DNA from: Myxococcota bacterium
GTDB taxonomy: Bacteria; Myxococcota_A; UBA796; CAJQPC01
Reading direction: 5' to 3'
DNA: 64,000 nucleotides
Assembly: GCA_036012755.1 (NCBI GenBank)
Contig: DASCPX010000107.1
Coordinates: 1-64,000 of the forward strand
A model generated the notes under the pieces. The model was not told where the DNA came from, did not search any database, and saw only the letters and a program-made list of their open reading frames with translations. Positions 288 to 63,278 of the stretch are shown piece by piece. Position 1 is the stretch's first letter, and the number at the start of each line of letters is the position of its first letter. Both the position numbers and the translations under genes were made by a program.

Positions 288-764
288 ATGAAGCAAGCAA
301 CTGCGGCCTTTGACCTCCCTGGACCGGAGCACACGCGACGCCTCGGCGCGTTGTTGGGGTCGACGGCCTCGGAGGGAGCGACCCTGGCTCTCGACGGCGA
401 GCTCGGAGCAGGCAAGACCACCTTGACCCAGGGGCTCGGCGCCGCGCTCGGAGTCGAGGGTCCAGTGACCAGCCCGACTTTTCAGCTGCTGTTCGTCCAC
501 GAGGGACGCCTGAGGCTGTTCCACGCGGACCTCTACCGACTCGGCGACGCCTCGGAGCTCACCGAGCTGGGCTTCGACGAGGTCCTCGGCACCTCTGGTG
601 TCTCGGTGATCGAGTGGGCCGGGCGCTTTCCCGATGTGCTCCCAGGTGATTACCTGCAGCTGACGCTGACCTACGAGGGGGATGGACGATGCGCGCACGC
701 AGAGGCACGAGGAGCCTGCTCGAGCGGCTGGCTGGAGCGGACGCAGGCGGGCTGGGACCGGTAG
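288..764 (+). CDS. tsaE: tRNA threonylcarbamoyladenosine biosynthesis ATPase TsaE
   Basis: LDGELGAGKTTL Walker A, VTSPTF, HADLYRL, IEWA motifs. Confidence 0.95.
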   Translation: MKQATAAFDLPGPEHTRRLGALLGSTASEGATLALDGELGAGKTTLTQGLGAALGVEGPVTSPTFQLLFVHEGRLRLFHADLYRLGDASELTELGFDEVLGTSGVSVIEWAGRFPDVLPGDYLQLTLTYEGDGRCAHAEARGACSSGWLERTQAGWDR

Positions 765-1048
765 CGGTCGTCGCCTGCCTGGGGCTCGCGCTCCTGGCCA
801 CGACCCTGGGCGTGGAGAGCGTCGGCTCCCTGGACCCGAAGGGCCACGAGCTCGCGGTGCTCGGAACGATCGACGTGAACACGGCCACGGTCGATGAGCT
901 CCAGGCCCTGCCTGGAATCGGTCCCAGTCTCGCCGGGCGCATGGTCGAGGCCCGTCCTTTCGATGAGGTGGCGGACCTCGAGCGCGTCGTCGGGATCGGT
1001 CCCGTCACGCGCGCCAGGCTCTCTCCCTTCGTGGTGGTCGCGCGTTAG
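689..1048 (+). CDS. ComEA-family helix-hairpin-helix DNA-binding protein (true start uncertain, probably near 750)
   Basis: IDVNTATVDELQALPGIGPSLA...RPF...DLERVVGIG double HhH after an N-terminal hydrophobic stretch. Confidence 0.85.
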   Translation: MRARRGTRSLLERLAGADAGGLGPVAVVACLGLALLATTLGVESVGSLDPKGHELAVLGTIDVNTATVDELQALPGIGPSLAGRMVEARPFDEVADLERVVGIGPVTRARLSPFVVVAR

Positions 1049-53919: not shown

Positions 53920-54936
53920 ATGTTCCCCGCCTCCTACCGCGTCGCCGACCTCCGGATCGAGCCCAACCTGGTGCTGTCACCTATGGAAGGGGTCACGGAC
54001 CTGACCTTCCGGCGGCTCATCAGGGGGATCGGCGGGGCTGGCCTGACCGTCACCGAGTTCGTCCCGGGCGCGGCCCTGGGGCGCGGGGACAAGAAGGTCG
54101 TGCAGACGGTGGAGCTCGACGAGGACGAGCATCCGGTCGCGGTCCAGCTCTATGGCAACGCCCCGGGTCGGATGGCGGAAGGAGCCAGGGTCGTCCAGGG
54201 CATGGGCGCTGACATCGTCGACATCAACATGGGCTGTCCGTCGAAGAGGGTCTGCAGGAGCAGTGGGGGCTCGGCCCTGATGCGCGAGCCCGCGCTGGCT
54301 CGGGAGATCGTGGCGGCGGTGGTCTCGGCGGTGGACATCCCCGTCACGGTGAAGATGCGCTCCGGCTTCGACGCCTCGAACCGGAACGCCCCAGAGATCG
54401 CCTGGATCTGCCAGGAGGAGGGGGCCTCGGCCGTCACGATCCACTGGCGAACCAGACAGGACGGCTACGGCGGCGTGCGCGCGGTCTGCAAGATCGCCGA
54501 GGCCAAGGGTCGGCTGTCGATCCCGGTCCTCGCCAACGGGGACATCGTCGACGTCCGCTCCGCCCGGCGCATGTTCGAGGACACCGGCTGCGACGGTCTC
54601 TTCGTCGGTCGAGGCGCGATCCGGGATCCCTGGCTCCTGCTCCGGCTCCAGCGCTGGATGCGTGGCGAGGAAGAGCCGGTCGTCCAGGACTCGGACAGGC
54701 ACAGGCTGCTGTTGGACTACGTGGCGGGCCTTCGCGCTCGCTTCGCGATCTCCATCGGGAGCCAGGCGAGGGTCGACCACGCCGTGCTGGGTCGCTTCAA
54801 GATGTTCACGAAGCACTTCGCGACGCTGCACCTGTCCAAGGACGAGACGATCCGGACGAAGCTGCTCCGGAGCCAGACCCTCGATACGGCCTTGGGGCAT
54901 GTCGAGGAGTACTTCGACCGCTATCGGGTAGCCTGA
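53920..54936 (+). CDS. dusB: tRNA-dihydrouridine synthase (DusB-like)
   Basis: LSPMEGVTD, QLYG, DINMGCP, VTVKMR, H.RT, ANGDI, GRGA. Confidence 0.88.
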   Translation: MFPASYRVADLRIEPNLVLSPMEGVTDLTFRRLIRGIGGAGLTVTEFVPGAALGRGDKKVVQTVELDEDEHPVAVQLYGNAPGRMAEGARVVQGMGADIVDINMGCPSKRVCRSSGGSALMREPALAREIVAAVVSAVDIPVTVKMRSGFDASNRNAPEIAWICQEEGASAVTIHWRTRQDGYGGVRAVCKIAEAKGRLSIPVLANGDIVDVRSARRMFEDTGCDGLFVGRGAIRDPWLLLRLQRWMRGEEEPVVQDSDRHRLLLDYVAGLRARFAISIGSQARVDHAVLGRFKMFTKHFATLHLSKDETIRTKLLRSQTLDTALGHVEEYFDRYRVA

Positions 54937-54940
54937 GGAC

Positions 54941-56413
54941 GTGGACAATGACCCGCTGATCGGCGCGGTGATCGAGGACCGCTACGAGCTCGTCGCGGCG
55001 ATCGGGCAGGGTGGCGCTGCCCGGGTCTACCGGGCGATCCAGCAGCCGCTGGGGCGCGAGGTCGCGCTGAAGGTCGTCCGGCCCGATCTGCAAGGGGCGC
55101 AGCGGAAGGAGTTCCAGTCCCGCTTCCTGCGCGAGGCCGCCGGGGCTGGACGACTCGCGCATCCGGCCATCGTTCGGGTCTACGACTTCGGCCAGACGGC
55201 GGATGGGGACTGCTTCATCGTCATGGAGCTGCTCGTCGGCCGTCCCCTCCGGCGGCTCGTCAACTCCCCCGTGGACCCGCGCGAGGTAGCCCGCATCGGC
55301 GCCGTCCTGGGGCGTGGGCTCCGACACGCCCACGTCCGCGGCGTCGTCCATCGGGACGTCAAGCCGGGGAACATCCTGCTCGTGCGGGACGACGACGGCG
55401 TCGAGCAGCCGAAGCTCCTGGACTTCGGCCTCGTCAAGGCAGAGGACGAGCCCACCTTCACCGGCGTGGGCACCTTCATGGGTACACCCCACTACATCGC
55501 GCCGGAGCAGGCCAAGAGCGACGGCGTCGTCGACGGGCGAGCCGACCAGTACAGCCTCGGCGTCATCCTCTACCGAATGCTCACCGGAGTCCTGCCCTAC
55601 ATGGCGGAGCACCCCATGGGCATCGCCCTGGCTCACATGAAGGAGCCCTACCCGCCGATGCGCGTCCGCGCGCCAGAGGTCACCGTCGACCCGGAGCTCG
55701 AGGACATCGTGCGGCGCTGCCTCGAGAAGGCCCCTGGGGATCGCTTCCCCGACGGGCGCGAGCTAGCCCGTGCCCTCGAAGCCTGGCTCGGCGCCGGGCC
55801 GGTGCTCCGAGAGGACTCCACGGTGAGCACCATCGAGCTCCCCGAACCAGAGCCAGAGCGCACCTGGGTTCCGCTCGTCGCTGGGGTGATCGGGCTGTTG
55901 CTCGCGCTCGGCGCCGGAGTAGCTCTCTGGCCCGAAGCCACCGAGGAGTTCCCCCTTCCGGTGCCCGATCCCCGCTTCGAGGTCCCCGAACTCACGGCGC
56001 TGCCGGAGACCCCGGTCTCCACCGCGCCGCGGAGCGTGTTCAGCCCACCTCCAGTCGACGAGGAGCCAGTCCTCGGTGAGGTGCCGGTCGAGGTCGCGAT
56101 CGAGGTGCCCGTCGAAGAGCCGCTGGAGCCGCCTGCTCCCGCCGCGGTCGAGCCGCTGGCTCCCGCAGAGGAGCCTCCGCCGGTGGGGCCCTCCGCGTCC
56201 TACGACGGCGTCCAGATGACCCGAGAACAAGCGGCTCGCACCCTGGCCTGGGTCAACGAGGCCGACGAGCAGGCCCTCCGCGCAGGAGGCGTCTACGGCC
56301 GCGGCGCCAACATCATCCTGGAGGCCCGCCCCTTCGCCACGATCGAGGCCTTCGTCGCGACGCCGTACATCGGCGAGAAGACGGTTCGCGCTGCCTACGA
56401 CGCTGCGAACTGA
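54941..56413 (+). CDS. Ser/Thr protein kinase - TM - Pro/Glu linker - ComEA-like HhH domain
   Basis: IGQGGAARV, VALK, HRDVKPGN, DFG, GTPHYIAPE, DQYSLG; TM near 55865-55930; C-terminal VNEA...EARPF...YIGEKT. Confidence 0.9.
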   Translation: MDNDPLIGAVIEDRYELVAAIGQGGAARVYRAIQQPLGREVALKVVRPDLQGAQRKEFQSRFLREAAGAGRLAHPAIVRVYDFGQTADGDCFIVMELLVGRPLRRLVNSPVDPREVARIGAVLGRGLRHAHVRGVVHRDVKPGNILLVRDDDGVEQPKLLDFGLVKAEDEPTFTGVGTFMGTPHYIAPEQAKSDGVVDGRADQYSLGVILYRMLTGVLPYMAEHPMGIALAHMKEPYPPMRVRAPEVTVDPELEDIVRRCLEKAPGDRFPDGRELARALEAWLGAGPVLREDSTVSTIELPEPEPERTWVPLVAGVIGLLLALGAGVALWPEATEEFPLPVPDPRFEVPELTALPETPVSTAPRSVFSPPPVDEEPVLGEVPVEVAIEVPVEEPLEPPAPAAVEPLAPAEEPPPVGPSASYDGVQMTREQAARTLAWVNEADEQALRAGGVYGRGANIILEARPFATIEAFVATPYIGEKTVRAAYDAAN

Positions 56414-56423
56414 GCAGGGATCG

Positions 56424-57104
56424 TCAGGCGATCGGCGTCGAGACCAGGTTCGCCACGTAGAAGAAGTGCAACGTCGCGCCGGCCAGCACGAAGAGGTGCC
56501 AGACCTCGTGGTGGCCGAAGCGCTCCGGCCAGGGGTCGGGCCACTCGCGCCAGAAGATCAGGGCGCCGATGGTGTAGGCGAGGCCGCCGGAGAGCAGCCA
56601 GAAGATCTCGATGCCCGTCAGCTGCGGGAAGAACAGCAGGACAGGGAACAAGCTGAACCAGCCGAAGGCGAGGTAGAGCCCGGTCGACAGCCAGTGGGGT
56701 GCGTCCAGCCAGACGACCTTGAGCAGGACGCCGGCGACCACGAAGGCGCCGACGATGCACAGCATGACGACTCGCCACGCGCCGTCGAGGAGGATCACCA
56801 GACCGGGCACATAGGTGCCGGCGATCAACAGGTAGATCGTCATGTGGTCGATGCGGCGGAGGAGGCGATTGCCGCGCTCTCCGAAGTCGAAGAAGTGGTA
56901 GGCCGCGCTCGCGGCGAAGAGCGCCACGAGCGTGCCGCCGTAGATGCTCGCCGAGGTCACCCTGGCCGCCCCTGGCTCGCAGAAGACGAGCAACAGCACG
57001 AGGCCAACGATGGCGGCGACGAAGCCGGCGAAGTGGGAGAGCCAGGACCAGAAGTCCTTGAAGATGCCGAAGCGCACCCGGATGCCCTGGCGGAAGAAGC
57101 TCAT
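56424..57104 (-). CDS. Hemolysin III / PAQR (TrhA) family membrane protein
   Basis: SAAYH, RRIDH..IYLLIAGTY, GGLAYTIGA, HEVWHLFV, H. Confidence 0.93.
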   Translation of the reverse strand: MSFFRQGIRVRFGIFKDFWSWLSHFAGFVAAIVGLVLLLVFCEPGAARVTSASIYGGTLVALFAASAAYHFFDFGERGNRLLRRIDHMTIYLLIAGTYVPGLVILLDGAWRVVMLCIVGAFVVAGVLLKVVWLDAPHWLSTGLYLAFGWFSLFPVLLFFPQLTGIEIFWLLSGGLAYTIGALIFWREWPDPWPERFGHHEVWHLFVLAGATLHFFYVANLVSTPIA

Positions 57105-59836
57105 TCGTCGCGGCGGCGCCTCATCAGGAGCATGCCGAGCAGTGTAAGCACCGAAGCCGCAGCGGCGCCACCGCCGCTGCAACCGAAGCAGGCAGCGGAG
57201 CCCTGGCAGTCCGCGTCGATGTCGTCGCCAGCGCCGTCACAGTCGTTGTCCTTTCCGTCGTCGCACTGCTCGATGGCGTCCCGGTAGACCCAGGGATCCT
57301 CGTCGTCGCAGTCGCCCTGCGCGGGTGCCTGCCCGTCGCCGTCGTTGTCGTCCCACCACCCTGGGATGCCGCTGTCGGTGGGGGAGGTGCCCGTGTCGGT
57401 GTCGTCTGTGTCGCCGGTGTCCTCTGGGGCGATGCCGTCGACCCCATCGCAGTTCTGGTCGATGCCGTCGTCCAGCACCTCGTCGGCGTTCGGGTAGATC
57501 GTCCCGTCCGTGTCGTCGCAGTCGGTCTCTTCCGGCGGGTCTCCACCACTCTCGTGGCGGAAGCCGTCACCGTCGGCGTCGTAGTCGTCGGCGCCGTCGC
57601 AGTCGCTGTCCACCCCGTCGTACCAGGTGTCGGTCGCGCCCGGGTAGACGCTCGCGTCGTCATTGTCGCAGTCGCCGTCGCTGGGCTTGTAGCCGTCGCC
57701 GTCGTCGTCCTCGTCAGCGGCCTCTGGCCCGCCGAAGCTGCCCATGTCCGAGCGCGAGCCGTCGGTGTCGGTGATGTCGGGGTCCCCAGCGTCCCGGCAA
57801 GGCGAGGTGGAGCTCAGGTACAGGATGTCGTTGTCGGCGTTGTCGTCAACGCTCCAGCCCGTGTAGTCAGGGTCCTTCGAGATGTTGCCGTCCAAGCCAG
57901 TGAGATCACTGAGACCTTGACCCCAGTCGGTGCCGTTGTCGTGGCTGTCGTTGTAGGTGATGACGAAGTCGCTGATCGAGTAGGCACGGAAGCCGTCGCC
58001 GTCGTTGAAGGCGGCGATGTCGTTGACGAGGGTCACACCCTCGCCGTACTCCACGCTGAAGCCGCGCTCGCCGTTGCCGACCGCGTCGGAGTTCTGCACG
58101 ACGAAGGCCCCGGTCGCGTCCGAGACCGTCAGGCCAGTGCCGCCGTTGCCTATGAAGACGCTGTTGGTGACGATGTGTGAGCCGCTCGCCGAGTAGTAGG
58201 CGCCGCCGTCCAGGTTGCCGCGGAAGCTCGTGTTCTCCATGTAGGAGCCGTCGATCGAGACCGCCTTGAGGCCCTCTTCGGCGTTCCCGCTGTAGCTGTC
58301 CGATGTGATCTTGAAGCTGTTGGCGCCGATGACGTAGACGCCCTCTGGGCTGTTGTCGTCGAAGTCGTTCTGGGACGAGATCCATGACTTGGGCGCGTCG
58401 GCATAGACGGCGCCGCCGCTCGTCGTCGCGGTGTTGCGCTGGAAGCTGTTCTTCGACAGCGTGCCCGTGGCCCCCGAGGCGTCGTTGGCGTGGTGGAAGA
58501 CGGCGCCCCCGACGTCGGAGGTGTTCGTCAGGAAGGTGCTGCGCTTGAGGGTCATCGCGGCCCGGTAGACGCGGATCGCCCCGCCCTGGGAGCCGCCGGA
58601 GTTGGCCGTGAAGGTCGAGTCGTAGACCTCCAGCTTGCCCTCGTCGGCGAAGATGGCGCCGCCGGCGATGTCAGCCGTGTTGCTCGTGAAGTCCCCGTCC
58701 TGGATGTAGATGGGCGCAGAGGACCAGATCGCCGCTCCCTCCTCCGTGGCGGTGTTGTCCTCGAAGGTGCAGGTGTCGACGGCGAGGTCCTCGCCGCTGC
58801 CGGTGTCGATCACGTAGACAGCGCCGGAGTCGGAGCTGTGGTTCATGATCGTGCAGTCCCGCAGGGTCAGCTTCGTGCCGCCGCCGAAGTAGATGGCCGG
58901 CCCGCGGATGGTGCTCGCCGCGGCGGTGTTGCCGTCCATCTCGCCGCGGACCTCCATCTTCGTGTCCCAGCTGTAGATCCCGCCCCCGTTCCCGCCTGCG
59001 GCGTTGTCGTTGATCTCCGCGGTGGCCCCGCGGAACCAGCTGCCAGAGCTCGAGTTGGACCCCTCGATGTAGGCGCCTGCGCCGGAGAGCCCGGAGCTGT
59101 TGTTGGTCACGACACAGTTCTGGCAAGCCAGGTCGGAGTCACGGACGTCGACACCGCCACCGTTGTCCGCGGCAACGTTCGAGTCGACCGTGACCCGCGT
59201 CATCGTGACCGTGGAGCCGTCGCGGATCCGGAAGCCCCCGCCGTGCCACTCGGCGGTGTTGTCTTCGACGGTGACGTCGGTGAGGTCCGCCGTCGAGTCG
59301 GTGATGTAGAAGCCCCCGCCCTGGTACGCGGTGTTGCCGCTGACCGTGCAGTTGCTGGCGGTGAGGGTGCTGCCGTCGACGAAGAAGCCGGCCCCGTACT
59401 GGCTGTTGGTGAGCTCCACGTTCTTGACGTTGCAGCTGCTGATCGTCAGCGTGGCGCCGTTGGTGACGAGGTAGCCCCCGCCGTTGCTCTTGCCCGTGAC
59501 GTTGTTGACGCGGATCGACGAGGCCGTCACGGTCGACCCGCGGACCTCCAGCCCCTGGTCGCTGCCGGTCAGCTCGAAGCCCGAGATCGTCACGGTCTCG
59601 CCCTCGTCTACCGACACCGCGTGGGTCTCGCCCGTGGCGTCGATGATCGTGGTCGACGGGCCATCGCCTGTCAGGGTGAGGTTCTTTCCGCTGGTGTCGA
59701 CGGCCTCTTCATAGGTGCCGGCGGCCACGGTGATCGTGTCTCCGCTGCTGGCGGCGTCGATCGCGGCCTGGATGGTGGAGTGGTCACCGGGCACGGAGAG
59801 CGTCGCGCCCCACGCCGGAGCGAGCAGGATCAGCAC
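57101..59836 (-). CDS. Large surface protein: right-handed beta-helix (Pmp-like repeats), MopE-like repeats, MYXO-CTERM-like tail
   Basis: GGAGG RBS, short signal, VPGD..TIQAAI, AGTY.E, FxxN/GGA[IV] repeats, SP..DAGDP, three DCDD-type repeats, CFGC-hydrophobic-RRRR. Confidence 0.85.
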   Translation of the reverse strand: MLILLAPAWGATLSVPGDHSTIQAAIDAASSGDTITVAAGTYEEAVDTSGKNLTLTGDGPSTTIIDATGETHAVSVDEGETVTISGFELTGSDQGLEVRGSTVTASSIRVNNVTGKSNGGGYLVTNGATLTISSCNVKNVELTNSQYGAGFFVDGSTLTASNCTVSGNTAYQGGGFYITDSTADLTDVTVEDNTAEWHGGGFRIRDGSTVTMTRVTVDSNVAADNGGGVDVRDSDLACQNCVVTNNSSGLSGAGAYIEGSNSSSGSWFRGATAEINDNAAGGNGGGIYSWDTKMEVRGEMDGNTAAASTIRGPAIYFGGGTKLTLRDCTIMNHSSDSGAVYVIDTGSGEDLAVDTCTFEDNTATEEGAAIWSSAPIYIQDGDFTSNTADIAGGAIFADEGKLEVYDSTFTANSGGSQGGAIRVYRAAMTLKRSTFLTNTSDVGGAVFHHANDASGATGTLSKNSFQRNTATTSGGAVYADAPKSWISSQNDFDDNSPEGVYVIGANSFKITSDSYSGNAEEGLKAVSIDGSYMENTSFRGNLDGGAYYSASGSHIVTNSVFIGNGGTGLTVSDATGAFVVQNSDAVGNGERGFSVEYGEGVTLVNDIAAFNDGDGFRAYSISDFVITYNDSHDNGTDWGQGLSDLTGLDGNISKDPDYTGWSVDDNADNDILYLSSTSPCRDAGDPDITDTDGSRSDMGSFGGPEAADEDDDGDGYKPSDGDCDNDDASVYPGATDTWYDGVDSDCDGADDYDADGDGFRHESGGDPPEETDCDDTDGTIYPNADEVLDDGIDQNCDGVDGIAPEDTGDTDDTDTGTSPTDSGIPGWWDDNDGDGQAPAQGDCDDEDPWVYRDAIEQCDDGKDNDCDGAGDDIDADCQGSAACFGCSGGGAAAASVLTLLGMLLMRRRRDE
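57232..57709 (-). repeat. Three MopE-like / putative metal-binding repeats (DxDGDG...DCD...P...DGxDxxCDG) in the surface protein; limits approximate
   Basis: DDDGDGY..DCDNDD..DGVDSDCDG; DADGDGF..DCDDTD..DGIDQNCDG; DNDGDGQ..DCDDED..DGKDNDCDG. Confidence 0.85.
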
Positions 59837-59855
59837 AGATGACCTCCGCGGGGCG

Positions 59856-61604
59856 TCAGTCTGCCACCAGTACCAGCACCCCTGCTTCGCTGGCCTCGTC
59901 CTGGCAGTGGACCTGCCCGTCTTTCTCCGGCCAGCAGCGCAGCTCGAGTGCGTCGACGAGGTGGAGATCGGTGTATGCCGTGCTCCTGCCGACCACCTTG
60001 ACGGCGAGGGTGTAGTCGCCTTCTGGCACCTCTCCTTGCAGCCCCAGCTCGTCGCCGTCCAGCGCGCGCTCCCCTGCCTGCAGAAGGCGCACCCACTGCA
60101 CCGTGTCACCGTCGATCTGCACTGCGACGGGCACCGACCCTTCGATCTCGAGGGGGATCGGAGGCTGGTCGTCGATTGGCGCGATCGGGTCCGATCGGTA
60201 GTAGAGCCAGGCCGCCGTACCTCCGACGAGCACGACGAGGAAGCCCAAGGCTGCGACGGCGAAGCCGACCATCAGGAGCGGTCCGAGCACCCCCCTCTTC
60301 TTTGGGACCTCTGCGGGCGACGGGGGAAGCGGGGGCGGCGGGGGCCGCGCGATCGGGTCGGGCTCGTCGGCGGGCTCGCCGACGGGCTCGCCGACGGGCT
60401 CGGGCGGCCGTGCCAGGTTCGGCCCCGCGACCGCGTGCTGCACGATGTGTTCGACCGGAGGCTCGGGCTCCGGGCGGAACCCCGACAGCGGCGTGGGCGC
60501 TTCGAGGTCCTCTACCGGTACGCGGCCTGGAGTGCGTCGAGGCCTCCGAGCTCGCGGAGGCGCCGCCTCGGGTTGGGTCGGGCGGGGCTGGTCACCGCTG
60601 GTGCGCGGATCGATGTAGACCTGCTTCCCCGCGAGGACGCCGCTGGGCTCCTCCTCGTCGGGGAAGGCGAGGTCGACCAGTTGGCCCATGCTGTCGGCGC
60701 AGAAGTCTTCGAGCGAGGGACCGCGCGCGCGATCCGCGAAGGCGCGCAGGAGCTTCACGGCCTGCTCGCCCGTGGGGCGCTGACCGGGGCGATCGGCGCA
60801 CATCTGCAGCAACACCTTTCGGACCGCGTGATCCCAGTCCGTCTCGCTCATGCCCGTGTCGCTGATCGCCCCGGCAGCTTTGCGAAGGGCCTCGTGGTGA
60901 CGAGGGCCATCTGGCAACACCTTCAGCCACTGCCCCTCGAGCAGCTCCATGAGCAACAGGCCCAGGGAGTAGATGTCGCTGGTGTGCTCTCCGCGGTCGC
61001 CCTCCCGACGCTCCGGGCTCATGTACTTCAGCGAGCCGAAGCGGAGCATCGCCGTCTCCGCCTCGCGCCCCTCGAAGAAGCCCCGCGCCGTGCCGAAGTC
61101 GAGGACCTTGATCTCGCCCTCCTGCGTCAACATGATGTTGCTCGGCTTGATGTCGCGATGGACGACCTGGAGCGGCGCTTCGTGCCCGTAGGGTGTCTTT
61201 CGGTAGGCGGCGTCGAGCGCCGAGGCGACCTTGGCGCAGATCTGGTAGGCCGCGCGGGGCGGGAGTCGCTCCTTGCGCTCCGCCAGATGCTCCACGACCT
61301 GCTTCAGGTCGAGGCCGTCGACGAACTCCATCACGATGGCGAGCTGGCCGTCGAGCTCGGTCATCTCCTCGACCCGAACGATGTTGGGGTGGCGCAGGCG
61401 GGCCAGCATCCGCGCCTCGTCCTGGGTCCGGATGTGGAACTCGTCCGCGTCGTTCCACTTCTCGCGTAGGACTTTCACTGCCACGAGCCGCGTCAGGCCA
61501 CCCGTCCCGGTGACCTGGGCGAGGTAGACGCGAGCGAAGGTCCCACCGCTCCGTTCGTGGAGCAGCGTGATTTGTTGACGTCCGGGCGCGGAGGAGCGGT
61601 CCAT
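59856..61604 (-). CDS. Transmembrane Ser/Thr protein kinase with small extracytoplasmic beta domain
   Basis: GGTFARV, VAVK, HRDIKPSN, DFG, YMSPE, DIYSLG; Pro-rich linker; TM. Confidence 0.92.
   Translation of the reverse strand: MDRSSAPGRQQITLLHERSGGTFARVYLAQVTGTGGLTRLVAVKVLREKWNDADEFHIRTQDEARMLARLRHPNIVRVEEMTELDGQLAIVMEFVDGLDLKQVVEHLAERKERLPPRAAYQICAKVASALDAAYRKTPYGHEAPLQVVHRDIKPSNIMLTQEGEIKVLDFGTARGFFEGREAETAMLRFGSLKYMSPERREGDRGEHTSDIYSLGLLLMELLEGQWLKVLPDGPRHHEALRKAAGAISDTGMSETDWDHAVRKVLLQMCADRPGQRPTGEQAVKLLRAFADRARGPSLEDFCADSMGQLVDLAFPDEEEPSGVLAGKQVYIDPRTSGDQPRPTQPEAAPPRARRPRRTPGRVPVEDLEAPTPLSGFRPEPEPPVEHIVQHAVAGPNLARPPEPVGEPVGEPADEPDPIARPPPPPLPPSPAEVPKKRGVLGPLLMVGFAVAALGFLVVLVGGTAAWLYYRSDPIAPIDDQPPIPLEIEGSVPVAVQIDGDTVQWVRLLQAGERALDGDELGLQGEVPEGDYTLAVKVVGRSTAYTDLHLVDALELRCWPEKDGQVHCQDEASEAGVLVLVAD
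60359..60402. repeat. 12-bp tandem repeat (CGGGCTCGCCGA, about 3.7 copies) encoding EPVG/EPAD in the kinase linker
   Basis: Direct inspection of the sequence. Confidence 0.75.
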
Positions 61605-61639
61605 GCGGTCTCGCGGGCTCCGGGACGGGCCCAGGGCCG

Positions 61640-61648
61640 AGGATAGCA
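61640..61648 (-). promoter_or_regulatory. Putative extended -10 (TGCTATCCT) for the kinase at 61604
   Basis: TGnTAnnnT in the divergent intergenic region. Confidence 0.45.
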
Positions 61649-61809
61649 CCGCCTTTTCTTCGCCAGGGGACGATGGGCGGAGTCCAGGGGGTTCGCCCGC
61701 GTGTCGATTCGGTTAGACTCCCCGCCGATTCGGACGGGATCCTCCAGTGGAACCCGAGCCGGGCGCGGGCGTCCGACAAGACGCGCGTGCTCCGCACAGG
61801 GAGAATGGA

Positions 61810-62817
61810 ATGCTTCTGGGCTTCTTGTGGCTGACGAGCTGCTTCGTCCTCGACATGATCGGCGGTGACGACGGGGCCTTGCTCCAGGGCGCGGACGCCA
61901 AGCTGAGCGCTGGCGATGTCGCTGGCGCGATCGTCGACTACGAGACCGTGCTCGCCGGCAATCCGGAGAGCGTCGACGCCGCGATCGGCGTGGCCTATGG
62001 CGCCTACGTCAGTGGCGACCTCGGGCGCGCCGAGACCGTGCTCGCCTCTGTCGAGGGTGTCGCGGGCGAGCGACTCAGCGAGATCAAGCTCCGGCGTGCG
62101 CTGGTCGCGATGGCCTCTGGGGACACGGACGCGCTGCGCGAGCACGCGGCCGCCTCGGGTCTGCCGGAGGGCAAGGTCCTCGTCGCAGAGGTGGCCCTGG
62201 CCGACGGTGAGCGCGAAGAGGCCATCGCGCTCCTGCAGGACGCAGCTGGTGCCGGCGGCGAGGTCGCTTCTGCCGCCAACGGCTACCTGGAGCTGCTCGG
62301 GGATGACGATCCTGCCGTGCAGGGTCTGGCCGAGAACTACGCGCTGTGGGCGCTCGGTGCCCGCAGCGTGGCGGTGAAGTCCGTCGAGGAGGTCGTCAAG
62401 AGCGTCCCCGACGATCGCGATCGAAAGGCGGAGGAGCTCTTGTTGTGGGCTGGCCGGGCGGCGGGTGAGGGGGAGACCCTCGTCGCTTCCAGCCTGCTCG
62501 AGGCGATCAGCTTCCCACCGCCGGGGCAGGCGTGGCGTGTTCCGGCGACGCGGGCGATCATCGACTGCGCCGACGGCGAGCACGACACCTGCCTCGCCAC
62601 CTTCGAAGACCTCGACGGAAAGGCCCCTGCGGACGGCCTCCTGCATGCCCGCGCGACCGCTGCCATGCTGGTGGACGACGCCGAGGTCGTCACAGAGCTC
62701 CTTCCGGAGCACCCCAGCGCGGCCTCGGCTCTAGCTGCCGCGATGGCTGGCAATGACTCCATGGCTCGGAGCCTGGCCCCGTCTGGCCTGCTCGCCGAGC
62801 ACCTCAACGCGAGGTAA
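61810..62817 (+). CDS. TPR-like helical repeat lipoprotein
   Basis: MLLGFLWLTSC; GD..GAI..YE.VL..NP..VDA..G.A TPR pattern. Confidence 0.7.
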   Translation: MLLGFLWLTSCFVLDMIGGDDGALLQGADAKLSAGDVAGAIVDYETVLAGNPESVDAAIGVAYGAYVSGDLGRAETVLASVEGVAGERLSEIKLRRALVAMASGDTDALREHAAASGLPEGKVLVAEVALADGEREEAIALLQDAAGAGGEVASAANGYLELLGDDDPAVQGLAENYALWALGARSVAVKSVEEVVKSVPDDRDRKAEELLLWAGRAAGEGETLVASSLLEAISFPPPGQAWRVPATRAIIDCADGEHDTCLATFEDLDGKAPADGLLHARATAAMLVDDAEVVTELLPEHPSAASALAAAMAGNDSMARSLAPSGLLAEHLNAR

Positions 62818-62819
62818 CC

Positions 62820-63278
62820 ATGACACGAAGCATCCTGTCCCTCTTTGCCCTGCTGCTCCTGGCAGTGCTCCCTTCAGAGGCCCTCGCCAAGAAGGGCGCT
62901 GACTCGATCGGCACACGGGTCTACGTCCAGGTCCTGGACGAGGCTGGTGAGCCGATCCGCACGGCGGTCATCCGCCACCCCGATGAGGCCGACCGCCATC
63001 GCGTCAACAGTGTCGACGGCACCTGGGACGACGAGGTCCTCTACCTCCCGGACGGCACGGAGCTCATCTTCACCCCGGGAATGATGCTGGTGCTCGAGGT
63101 GTCGGCGCCTGGCTACGAGACCCAGGTCATCCAGTACCAGGTCCGGCGGCGCAAGAACAACCTGAAGGTCACGCTCACCGAGCTCAAGTACGACGAGGGC
63201 GAGATCGAGGAGCCGATGATGTCCTTTGGACGCGACACCCCGCGCGACGAGAGCGGCGGTGGCGACCCGGCCAACTGA
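62820..63278 (+). CDS. Secreted protein with carboxypeptidase-regulatory/transthyretin-like beta sandwich
   Basis: Canonical signal peptide; V.VLDEAGEPI..A, LEVSAPGY. Confidence 0.6.
   Translation: MTRSILSLFALLLLAVLPSEALAKKGADSIGTRVYVQVLDEAGEPIRTAVIRHPDEADRHRVNSVDGTWDDEVLYLPDGTELIFTPGMMLVLEVSAPGYETQVIQYQVRRRKNNLKVTLTELKYDEGEIEEPMMSFGRDTPRDESGGGDPAN

Follow-up and report, generated by a model that had tools for sequence, protein, structure and literature searches.

The gene at positions 54941..56413 (+ strand) of the window, by which we mean the whole 64,000-nucleotide stretch of Myxococcota DNA that was analysed, encodes a receptor-type Hanks Ser/Thr kinase. The protein is strongly supported as carrying, at the far end from its kinase domain, a diverged ComEA-type double helix-hairpin-helix (HhH) module. 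The combination of kinase, transmembrane helix, stalk and HhH tail is a conserved family that Pfam leaves unannotated, and in the genomes searched the fusion occurs in a single order of Myxococcota. The type of sensor domain is what is new relative to known receptor Ser/Thr kinases. An earlier note on this DNA had proposed that such a tail could sense DNA in the periplasm, and the evidence that bears on this proposal is weighed below.

Architecture of the kinase and origin of its tail

The gene begins with a GTG codon, ends with the stop codon at 56411-56413 and encodes 490 amino acids. The GC content at its third codon positions is 0.87, a value typical of real genes in a window of 70% GC. 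The Hanks-type kinase domain (residues 15-269; 54983..55747) is matched by Pfam Pkinase (PF00069) with 153.1 bits against a cut-off of 31.7 (expectation value, E, 1.3e-44). The catalytic motifs are intact and at their usual spacing: the G-loop at residues 22-27, VALK at 41-44, HRDVKPGN at 137-144, DFG at 161-163 and APE at 187-189. Because the motifs are complete and normally spaced, the kinase should be active, and VAIK, HRD and DFG are kept in 35 of 37 full-length family representatives. An acidic juxtamembrane stretch (residues 270-307, with a net charge of -3 across its last 15 residues) leads to a single transmembrane helix at residues ~309-331 (55865..55933), where Kyte-Doolittle hydropathy in a 19-residue window reaches a maximum of 2.35; no other window exceeds 1.6.

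Behind the helix lies an acidic stalk rich in Pro, Glu and Val (residues 332-417; 55934..56191), predicted to be periplasmic, with 23 Pro, 17 Glu, 13 Val and no Lys among the 85 residues from 332 to 416. The linker from the helix to the tail, which our script delimits slightly differently from 332-416, has a net charge of -18 in the window protein. Of 36 family members, 34 have a net negative linker, and the family medians are a length of about 106 residues and 24% Pro. The C-terminal module (residues 418-490; 56192..56410) consists, according to the AlphaFold2 model, hhalign, profile matches in the PDB and structural alignment by VIA, of a beta-hairpin, a helix and a diverged ComEA-type (HhH)2. 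The earlier note had read the protein as an intact kinase with one transmembrane helix, a Pro/Glu stalk and a C-terminal domain, and Pfam, the motif search and hydropathy all agree with that description.

Several observations support a position of the tail outside the cytoplasm, as had been proposed. Kinases need ATP, so the kinase domain should be cytoplasmic, and the single transmembrane helix that follows it would then put the tail on the other side of the membrane. The tail is always C-terminal to a single transmembrane helix in the family members examined. In addition, a PEGA domain stands between helix and tail in 8 of 28 orthologues (L020, L022, L024, L025, L028, L030, L032 and L035); these belong to families f6 and f7, in which PEGA takes the place of part of the Pro-rich stalk. 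Lastly, non-kinase relatives have the tail module immediately after a lipoprotein signal peptide, one of them being a 374-residue lipoprotein of the window's own genome. A second transmembrane helix that would return the tail to the inside was considered and rejected, for in the six relatives with additional hydrophobic windows these correspond to Pro-rich linkers or PEGA strands.

Judged from the single sequence, the likeness of the tail to ComEA is not significant. The comparator in the window, which lies outside the system and 54 kb away, is a canonical ComEA-like open reading frame (ORF) of 119 amino acids (689..1048, + strand) that matches Pfam HHH_3 (PF12836) with 55 bits and has G-I-G in both hairpins; its matches to TIGR01259 and TIGR00426 are below the cut-offs of those models. 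BLASTP of the tail against this ORF gives a 7-residue 'EARPF' high-scoring pair alone (E 0.041). HHH_3 reaches 14.0-14.7 bits on the window tail (E 0.055 and 0.034), below the cut-off of 27, and a whole-genome scan with PF12836 at E<=10 gave nine matches without the window tail among them. None of the NCBIfam models, including those for ComEA (TIGR01259 and TIGR00426), matches the window tail. A word-indexed search for homologues of the tail returned its own cluster and one relative of 78% identity only (2 proteins among 963 candidates).

The family-wide profiles settle what the single pair could not. Thirty orthologous tails from the best loci of the order were aligned (A1). The matched control (A2) was an alignment of 30 canonical ComEA-type domains collected within this order, in which 60 of 61 sampled genomes contain such a domain. 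hhalign aligns the two sets over 49 columns with 96.8% probability (E 2.7e-10), and it reproduces every column of the alignment between the tail and the ComEA-like ORF that the earlier note had made by eye. HHH_3 at E<=1 matches 24 of the 30 orthologous tails (best E 5.8e-6). In a search of the PDB with the A1 profile the first three matches are all ComEA entries (2duy, 3.6e-4; 8dss, 1.2e-3; 8dfk, 2.4e-3). Against 1.84 billion representative proteins the same profile retrieves 1172 at E<=0.001. The matches that were scanned include proteins with 4-11 HHH_3 repeats well above the Pfam cut-off, with E down to 1e-46. Across the 30 tails Asp12, Asn29, Gly40, Arg53, Pro54 and Gly68 (A1 numbering) are invariant. 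The named Atlas look-alikes of the tail are all HHH_3, at a score of 0.86, and are taken as a lead only.

The predicted structure agrees with a double HhH fold without proving it. AlphaFold2 on A1 gives a model with a predicted local distance difference test score of 91.8, in which a beta-hairpin (8-17) is followed by five helices at the expected places. Foldseek finds no match to this model in the PDB at E<=0.001, its best being the HhH domain of TEFM with a TM score of 0.64. Exhaustive structural alignment with VIA places Fft3 first (Z 8.1), and the HhH neighbours are TEFM (7.7), KIF22 (6.2), ComEA 2duy (4.7), Tex (4.6) and ComEA 8dss (4.4). Z values of 4.4-7.7 are not distinctive by the tool's own scale and are common for small helical models, and the ranking interleaves non-HhH proteins, for example DNA primase, among the HhH matches. 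Homology of the tail to the ComEA-type double HhH domain is established, mainly by the profiles and in a manner consistent with the predicted fold.

Spread of the kinase-HhH family

Of the 154 genomes of the order, 98 contain the tail at E<=0.01. The tail forms the C-terminal end of the reading frame in all 30 best loci, as single orthologues across the order, and Pkinase is present in all 28 of the best orthologous ORFs tested. The earlier note had called for a search for the Pkinase-transmembrane-HhH architecture, and a conserved family is what that search returned. For example, the 150 best global representatives of the tail comprise 47 proteins with kinase, transmembrane helix and tail (one of them with two tails), 74 secreted multi-repeat proteins without a kinase and 29 short single-domain proteins. 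P0006, a metagenome protein of 670 amino acids, is a family kinase with two tandem tails (504-578 and 594-668) after a long linker rich in Pro, Ser and Ala.

The HhH module itself is spread wider than the fusion and reaches at least one Planctomycetota protein. It was found at E<=1e-8 in 43 of 251 sampled genomes of the phylum. None of the seven long-ORF matches sampled outside the order, from other orders and classes, carries a kinase, and all three further matches inside the order do. The family is invisible to routine annotation because every tail lies under the Pfam cut-off: no kinase tail scanned reaches the HHH_3 gathering score of 27 bits, the best having 22.0 bits, and at E<=0.001 HHH_3 is found in only 2 of the 28 orthologous ORFs, both under the cut-off. 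The full-text literature searched, subscription journals not included, yielded no description of a Hanks kinase bearing an HhH or ComEA-like domain outside the cytoplasm.

Candidate ligands of the tail

In the reading that we favour, and hold tentatively, the tail binds DNA outside the cytoplasm and activates the kinase. The stalk would hold the HhH module out in the periplasm, where the module would bind a phosphodiester polyanion, most likely periplasmic DNA or its larger breakdown products, through its two hairpins and the basic residues behind them (Arg454 and Lys480). Because one polymer can bind many tails, polymer-bound tails would raise the local density of kinases and so lead to trans-autophosphorylation, as in the ligand-driven clustering of other Hanks kinases. 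In one lineage or more, the signal would feed into the salvage or catabolism of nucleosides. Naming prey or phage as the source of the DNA is pure speculation.

The hairpins are central to this reading. Hairpin 1 (residues 449-455, G-G-V-Y-G-R-G; 56285..56305) contains the invariant Gly450, Tyr452 at the place of the canonical second Gly, and Arg454 as a conserved basic residue. In hairpin 2 (residues 474-481, T-P-Y-I-G-E-K-T; 56360..56383) Tyr476 replaces the first Gly, Gly478 is invariant and Lys480 is nearly so. The basic residues right behind the hairpins are widely kept, since position 44 is Arg or Lys in 25 of 30 tails and position 70 is Lys in 28 of 30; at these columns the canonical domains are basic in 0 of 30 and 6 of 30. 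According to PMC3879209, V. cholerae ComEA needs K62/K63, just after the HhH1 hairpin, in order to bind DNA; within that hairpin G60V and G60E each do away with DNA uptake, but G60A is tolerated. We infer the places of these residues on the tail from the alignments with 2duy and the canonical domains (A2). The canonical Lys or Arg lies one position later in hairpin 1 than Arg44 of the tail, and given a one-residue insertion or deletion between the two families at this hairpin, Arg44 may occupy a K63-like place. Net charge as an argument against DNA binding was considered and rejected: the HhH cores of tails and canonical domains are alike, with a median charge of 0 and 14 of 30 net positive, so charge does not discriminate between them. 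The window's two domains are both at -2.

The domain partners of the module in non-kinase proteins give a hint in the same direction, as they are DNA-flavoured. The module occurs together with canonical HHH_3 repeats and with LTD domains, a frequent component of extracellular nucleases. Two Myxococcota proteins from outside the order have the module in triplicate, with NuiA, a nuclease A inhibitor-like domain, after it: at L132 (2-1375, - strand) with 24.9 bits against a cut-off of 22.1, and at L133 (555-1901, + strand) with 20.5 bits, below that cut-off. Both of the stretches examined end inside the NuiA domain.

A further line of evidence comes from gene neighbourhoods, which were compared at 53 orthologous loci, the tail being re-found at 51. 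In family f3, 17 of 20 loci have, no more than 7 kb from the kinase, one or more genes of the set deoC, deoA (thymidine/pyrimidine nucleoside phosphorylase), nupC (a nucleoside transporter of the CNT type) and aldehyde dehydrogenase. At 12 of the 20 deoA is on the kinase strand and its 5' end falls at -46 to +50 nt relative to the kinase stop, at two more nupC is directly next, and at 13 deoC lies upstream on the opposite strand. The deo-linked f3 kinases are the closest relatives of the window protein outside its genus, with tails 59-69% identical to its own, and the window kinase domain is 59% identical over 282 amino acids to the deo-linked orthologue of genome G063. The f3 orthologue would be transcriptionally coupled to deoA-nupC and would diverge from deoC-aldehyde dehydrogenase. 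This coupling makes control of deoxynucleoside uptake and catabolism a plausible output, that is, a 'DNA as food' signal. The deo link is suggestive; it is the invention of one lineage, kept across several genera, and it counts as one event.

The fullest form of the DNA reading would make this the first bacterial transmembrane receptor kinase to sense extracytoplasmic DNA directly. The ComEA-derived domain, on an acidic stalk that spans the periplasm, would bind DNA during its uptake, for instance DNA of lysed prey. The polymer would cluster the kinase, whose phosphorylation would switch on nucleoside uptake and deoxyribose catabolism, by way of a fusion of a secreted HhH module to a Hanks kinase invented once in one order of Myxococcota. 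Taken as a whole, this chain of proposals is unlikely.

Several observations weigh against DNA as the ligand. First, both hairpins have lost a canonical glycine. The second Gly of hairpin 1 is present in 0 of 30 tails (Tyr in 22, Ala in 7 and Val in 1) and the first Gly of hairpin 2 in 5 of 30; the canonical domains of this order show no such loss, as all 30 have both glycines in hairpin 2 and the second one in hairpin 1. The tails lack the ComEA-type G-h-G in both hairpins, and the 47 global kinase representatives keep the second Gly of hairpin 1 in at most one case and the first Gly of hairpin 2 in 15. The earlier note had cautioned that the first hairpin is degenerate, which is true across the family and was understated, for the second hairpin also lacks a Gly in most members. 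Moreover, G60V and G60E of V. cholerae ComEA, with which DNA uptake is lost, lie in the HhH1 hairpin. Secondly, the column that holds Lys or Arg in 14 of 30 canonical domains holds Gly or Gln in all 30 tails, at a register that is uncertain by one residue. Third, the stalk is strongly acidic (-18) and would repel DNA rather than attract it. Fourth, HhH relatives that do not bind DNA are found among the weak matches: PsbU at Foldseek rank 7 and VIA ranks 39 and 45, and T2SSK/GspK in one weak Pfam match (E 0.088). Lastly, none of the 32 loci that fall outside f3, that of the window among them, has deo genes nearby. The deo operon of the genome to which the window belongs (G000) is on another contig, C157, without a kinase, and the neighbours of the window gene (dusB, TrhA, a beta-helix surface protein, a second kinase and a TPR protein) are uninformative on DNA.

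Much of this would be expected if the tail, though derived from an HhH domain, had lost the ability to bind nucleic acid and instead bound a protein partner or an envelope polymer, a reading that we consider possible if doubtful. The kinase would then monitor the state of the envelope or surface, by analogy with PsbU in photosystem II and with GspK, which has HhH-like domains, in the type II pseudopilus, both of which appear among the weak matches just named. The loss of one Gly per hairpin, the conserved Tyr452 and Tyr476, and the invariant Asp422 in the added beta-hairpin give the look of a re-purposed surface, and the most widespread neighbourhood, that of families f1, f6 and f7, is without DNA-related genes. 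The partner could be the neighbouring beta-helix surface protein, which is only a candidate. Such a reading has to account for the basic residues that are kept exactly behind both hairpins, for the fusion of the module to NuiA, LTD and canonical HHH_3 repeats, and for the embedding of the f3 orthologue in a deo cluster, all of which argue for DNA binding instead.

It is decidedly improbable, in our estimate, that the tail binds DNA as an anchor or localiser, on periplasmic DNA, the uptake machinery or matrix DNA, with kinase activity being set elsewhere, for example by the cytoplasmic juxtamembrane region or by the nearby second kinase. ComEA itself, according to PMC3879209, is a passive DNA ratchet or anchor and no sensor; a second Pkinase gene is conserved one to three genes away at many loci, and the long stalk fits a tether. 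Nothing specific speaks against an anchor, except that the tail is the only extracytoplasmic folded domain of the protein, which in receptor kinases is normally the input. That the likeness to ComEA is due to chance or composition and that the tail is an unrelated small helical domain is hardly credible, for the insignificant BLASTP pair, the sub-threshold Pfam scores, the lack of a Foldseek match at E<=0.001 and the common VIA Z values of 4-8 that would fit such a reading are contradicted by hhalign, by the HHH_3 matches to most tails, by the ComEA entries at the head of the PDB profile search and by the retrieval of bona fide HHH_3 repeat proteins at E<1e-30.

Neighbours, relatives and significance

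Upstream of the kinase gene lies a dusB-like gene (53920..54936, + strand; TIGR00737, E 1.4e-79), whose stop is 4 nt before the kinase start. The two genes may be co-transcribed, in the window genome only. Dus is present in four of the five other f1 genomes (G001, G004, G011 and G013), on the opposite strand and 2.4-4.9 kb from the kinase, and because it is distant and on the opposite strand there, the coupling of dusB to the kinase looks recent. The fifth, G016 (L091), gave no neighbour matches at all. The block common to f1, f6 and f7 consists of Dus upstream, a beta-helix/MopE surface protein, a second kinase, a TPR protein and two unknown genes. Downstream in the window, 11 nt past the kinase stop and tail to tail with it, is a gene for TrhA, a PAQR/hemolysin III family protein (56424-57182, - strand; 173.8 bits against a cut-off of 80); tblastn found no TrhA near the other orthologues. 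The beta-helix surface protein (57101-60109, - strand) has 1002 amino acids with right-handed beta-helix, NosD and MopE-type metal-binding repeats, and its cluster is present at 9 of 21 loci examined. The gene is tail to tail with the kinase, and the protein ends in Gly-Cys-Ser-Gly-Gly, a hydrophobic stretch and a run of Arg, which together resemble a MYXO-CTERM-type sorting tag. The second Ser/Thr kinase (59859-61712, - strand; Pkinase, E 4.9e-39) is conserved one to three genes from the HhH kinase at many f1, f6 and f7 loci. After it come a TPR protein (61717-62814, + strand) and a small unknown ORF (62757-63275, + strand), both conserved in the neighbourhood comparison.

Two other regions of the window's own genome were also noted. 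On contig C157 (63443-68164, + strand) homologues of deoC, deoA and nupC stand together in that order. An open frame of 512 amino acids between deoC and deoA may be deoB, and the deoA match contains one TGA, probably where neighbouring frames overlap. Contig C203 (L008, 682-1806, - strand) encodes a lipoprotein of 374 amino acids with two degenerate copies of the module, the second of which starts 'W-D-G-V-T-F-T'. The hairpin glycines are largely gone in this protein, and its C-terminal half has no Pfam match.

This lipoprotein is one of the secreted tandem-HhH proteins, from Myxococcota and other phyla, that are the nearest non-kinase relatives of the tail (others are P0009 and P0018). They share with it the same 70-residue module, starting with a 'D-G-V-x-F' beta-hairpin. 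Unlike the tail, they carry 2-13 copies behind a signal peptide and no kinase, and some include NuiA, LTD, FG-GAP or RCC1-like domains. The closest solved structure over the full module is the N-terminal HhH domain of human TEFM (5OL9; VIA Z 7.7 over 72 residues at 26% identity), in which, as in the tail, an extra N-terminal helix is packed on the double HhH. TEFM is a eukaryotic mitochondrial transcription factor, and the likeness is one of fold only, at a Z under the distinctive level.

The ComEA proteins of T. thermophilus (2DUY), Geobacillus (8DSS), B. subtilis (8DFK) and V. cholerae have a homologous (HhH)2, and both they and the tail are placed outside the cytoplasm. Conserved positions common to both are the Asn cap, a Gly in each hairpin, the turn of Arg-Pro-Phe and a Thr that follows hairpin 2. 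Whereas ComEA binds DNA as a small protein, either on its own or anchored in the membrane, and has G-h-G twice, the tail is without one Gly per hairpin. The tail also differs in its N-terminal beta-hairpin and helix with the invariant Asp, and in its fusion through stalk and transmembrane helix to a kinase of ~300 residues. Unlike in ComEA systems, no competence genes lie near the window kinase.

The plan of the protein is that of the PASTA kinases (PknB, PrkC and StkP), with a cytoplasmic Hanks kinase, a single transmembrane helix and an extracytoplasmic ligand domain. The PASTA family NF033483 is the best NCBIfam match of the kinase domain (274 bits over residues 8-287, under the cut-off of 450). 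The Pfam scan found no PASTA repeats in the window protein, which differs from the PASTA kinases in its HhH module on a Pro/Glu stalk and in its diderm host. The only precedent found for a DNA-activated bacterial Hanks kinase is B. subtilis YabT, a transmembrane kinase whose activation depends on DNA binding according to PMC3708118. The paper places the DNA-binding region at residues 230-315, after the kinase domain, and describes YabT as being without a canonical extracellular receptor domain; we read the region as cytoplasmic and lying before the transmembrane helix. Unlike in YabT, the candidate binding domain of the window kinase is a predicted folded HhH module after the transmembrane helix and outside the cytoplasm.

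Very few receptor Ser/Thr kinases of bacteria have a known ligand, the textbook case being muropeptides in the PASTA kinases. To our knowledge the inputs of myxobacterial receptor kinases are mostly unknown. Myxobacteria encode very large numbers of such kinases, according to PMC2887360. The family described here offers a concrete hypothesis for one such input, in that the ancestor of its sensor domain binds DNA in the periplasm. If DNA is not bound, the family would represent an HhH domain re-purposed for another extracytoplasmic ligand. If it is bound, the kinase would give a predator or scavenger a way to detect extracellular nucleic acid, and a direct receptor for extracellular DNA would be added to bacterial signalling.

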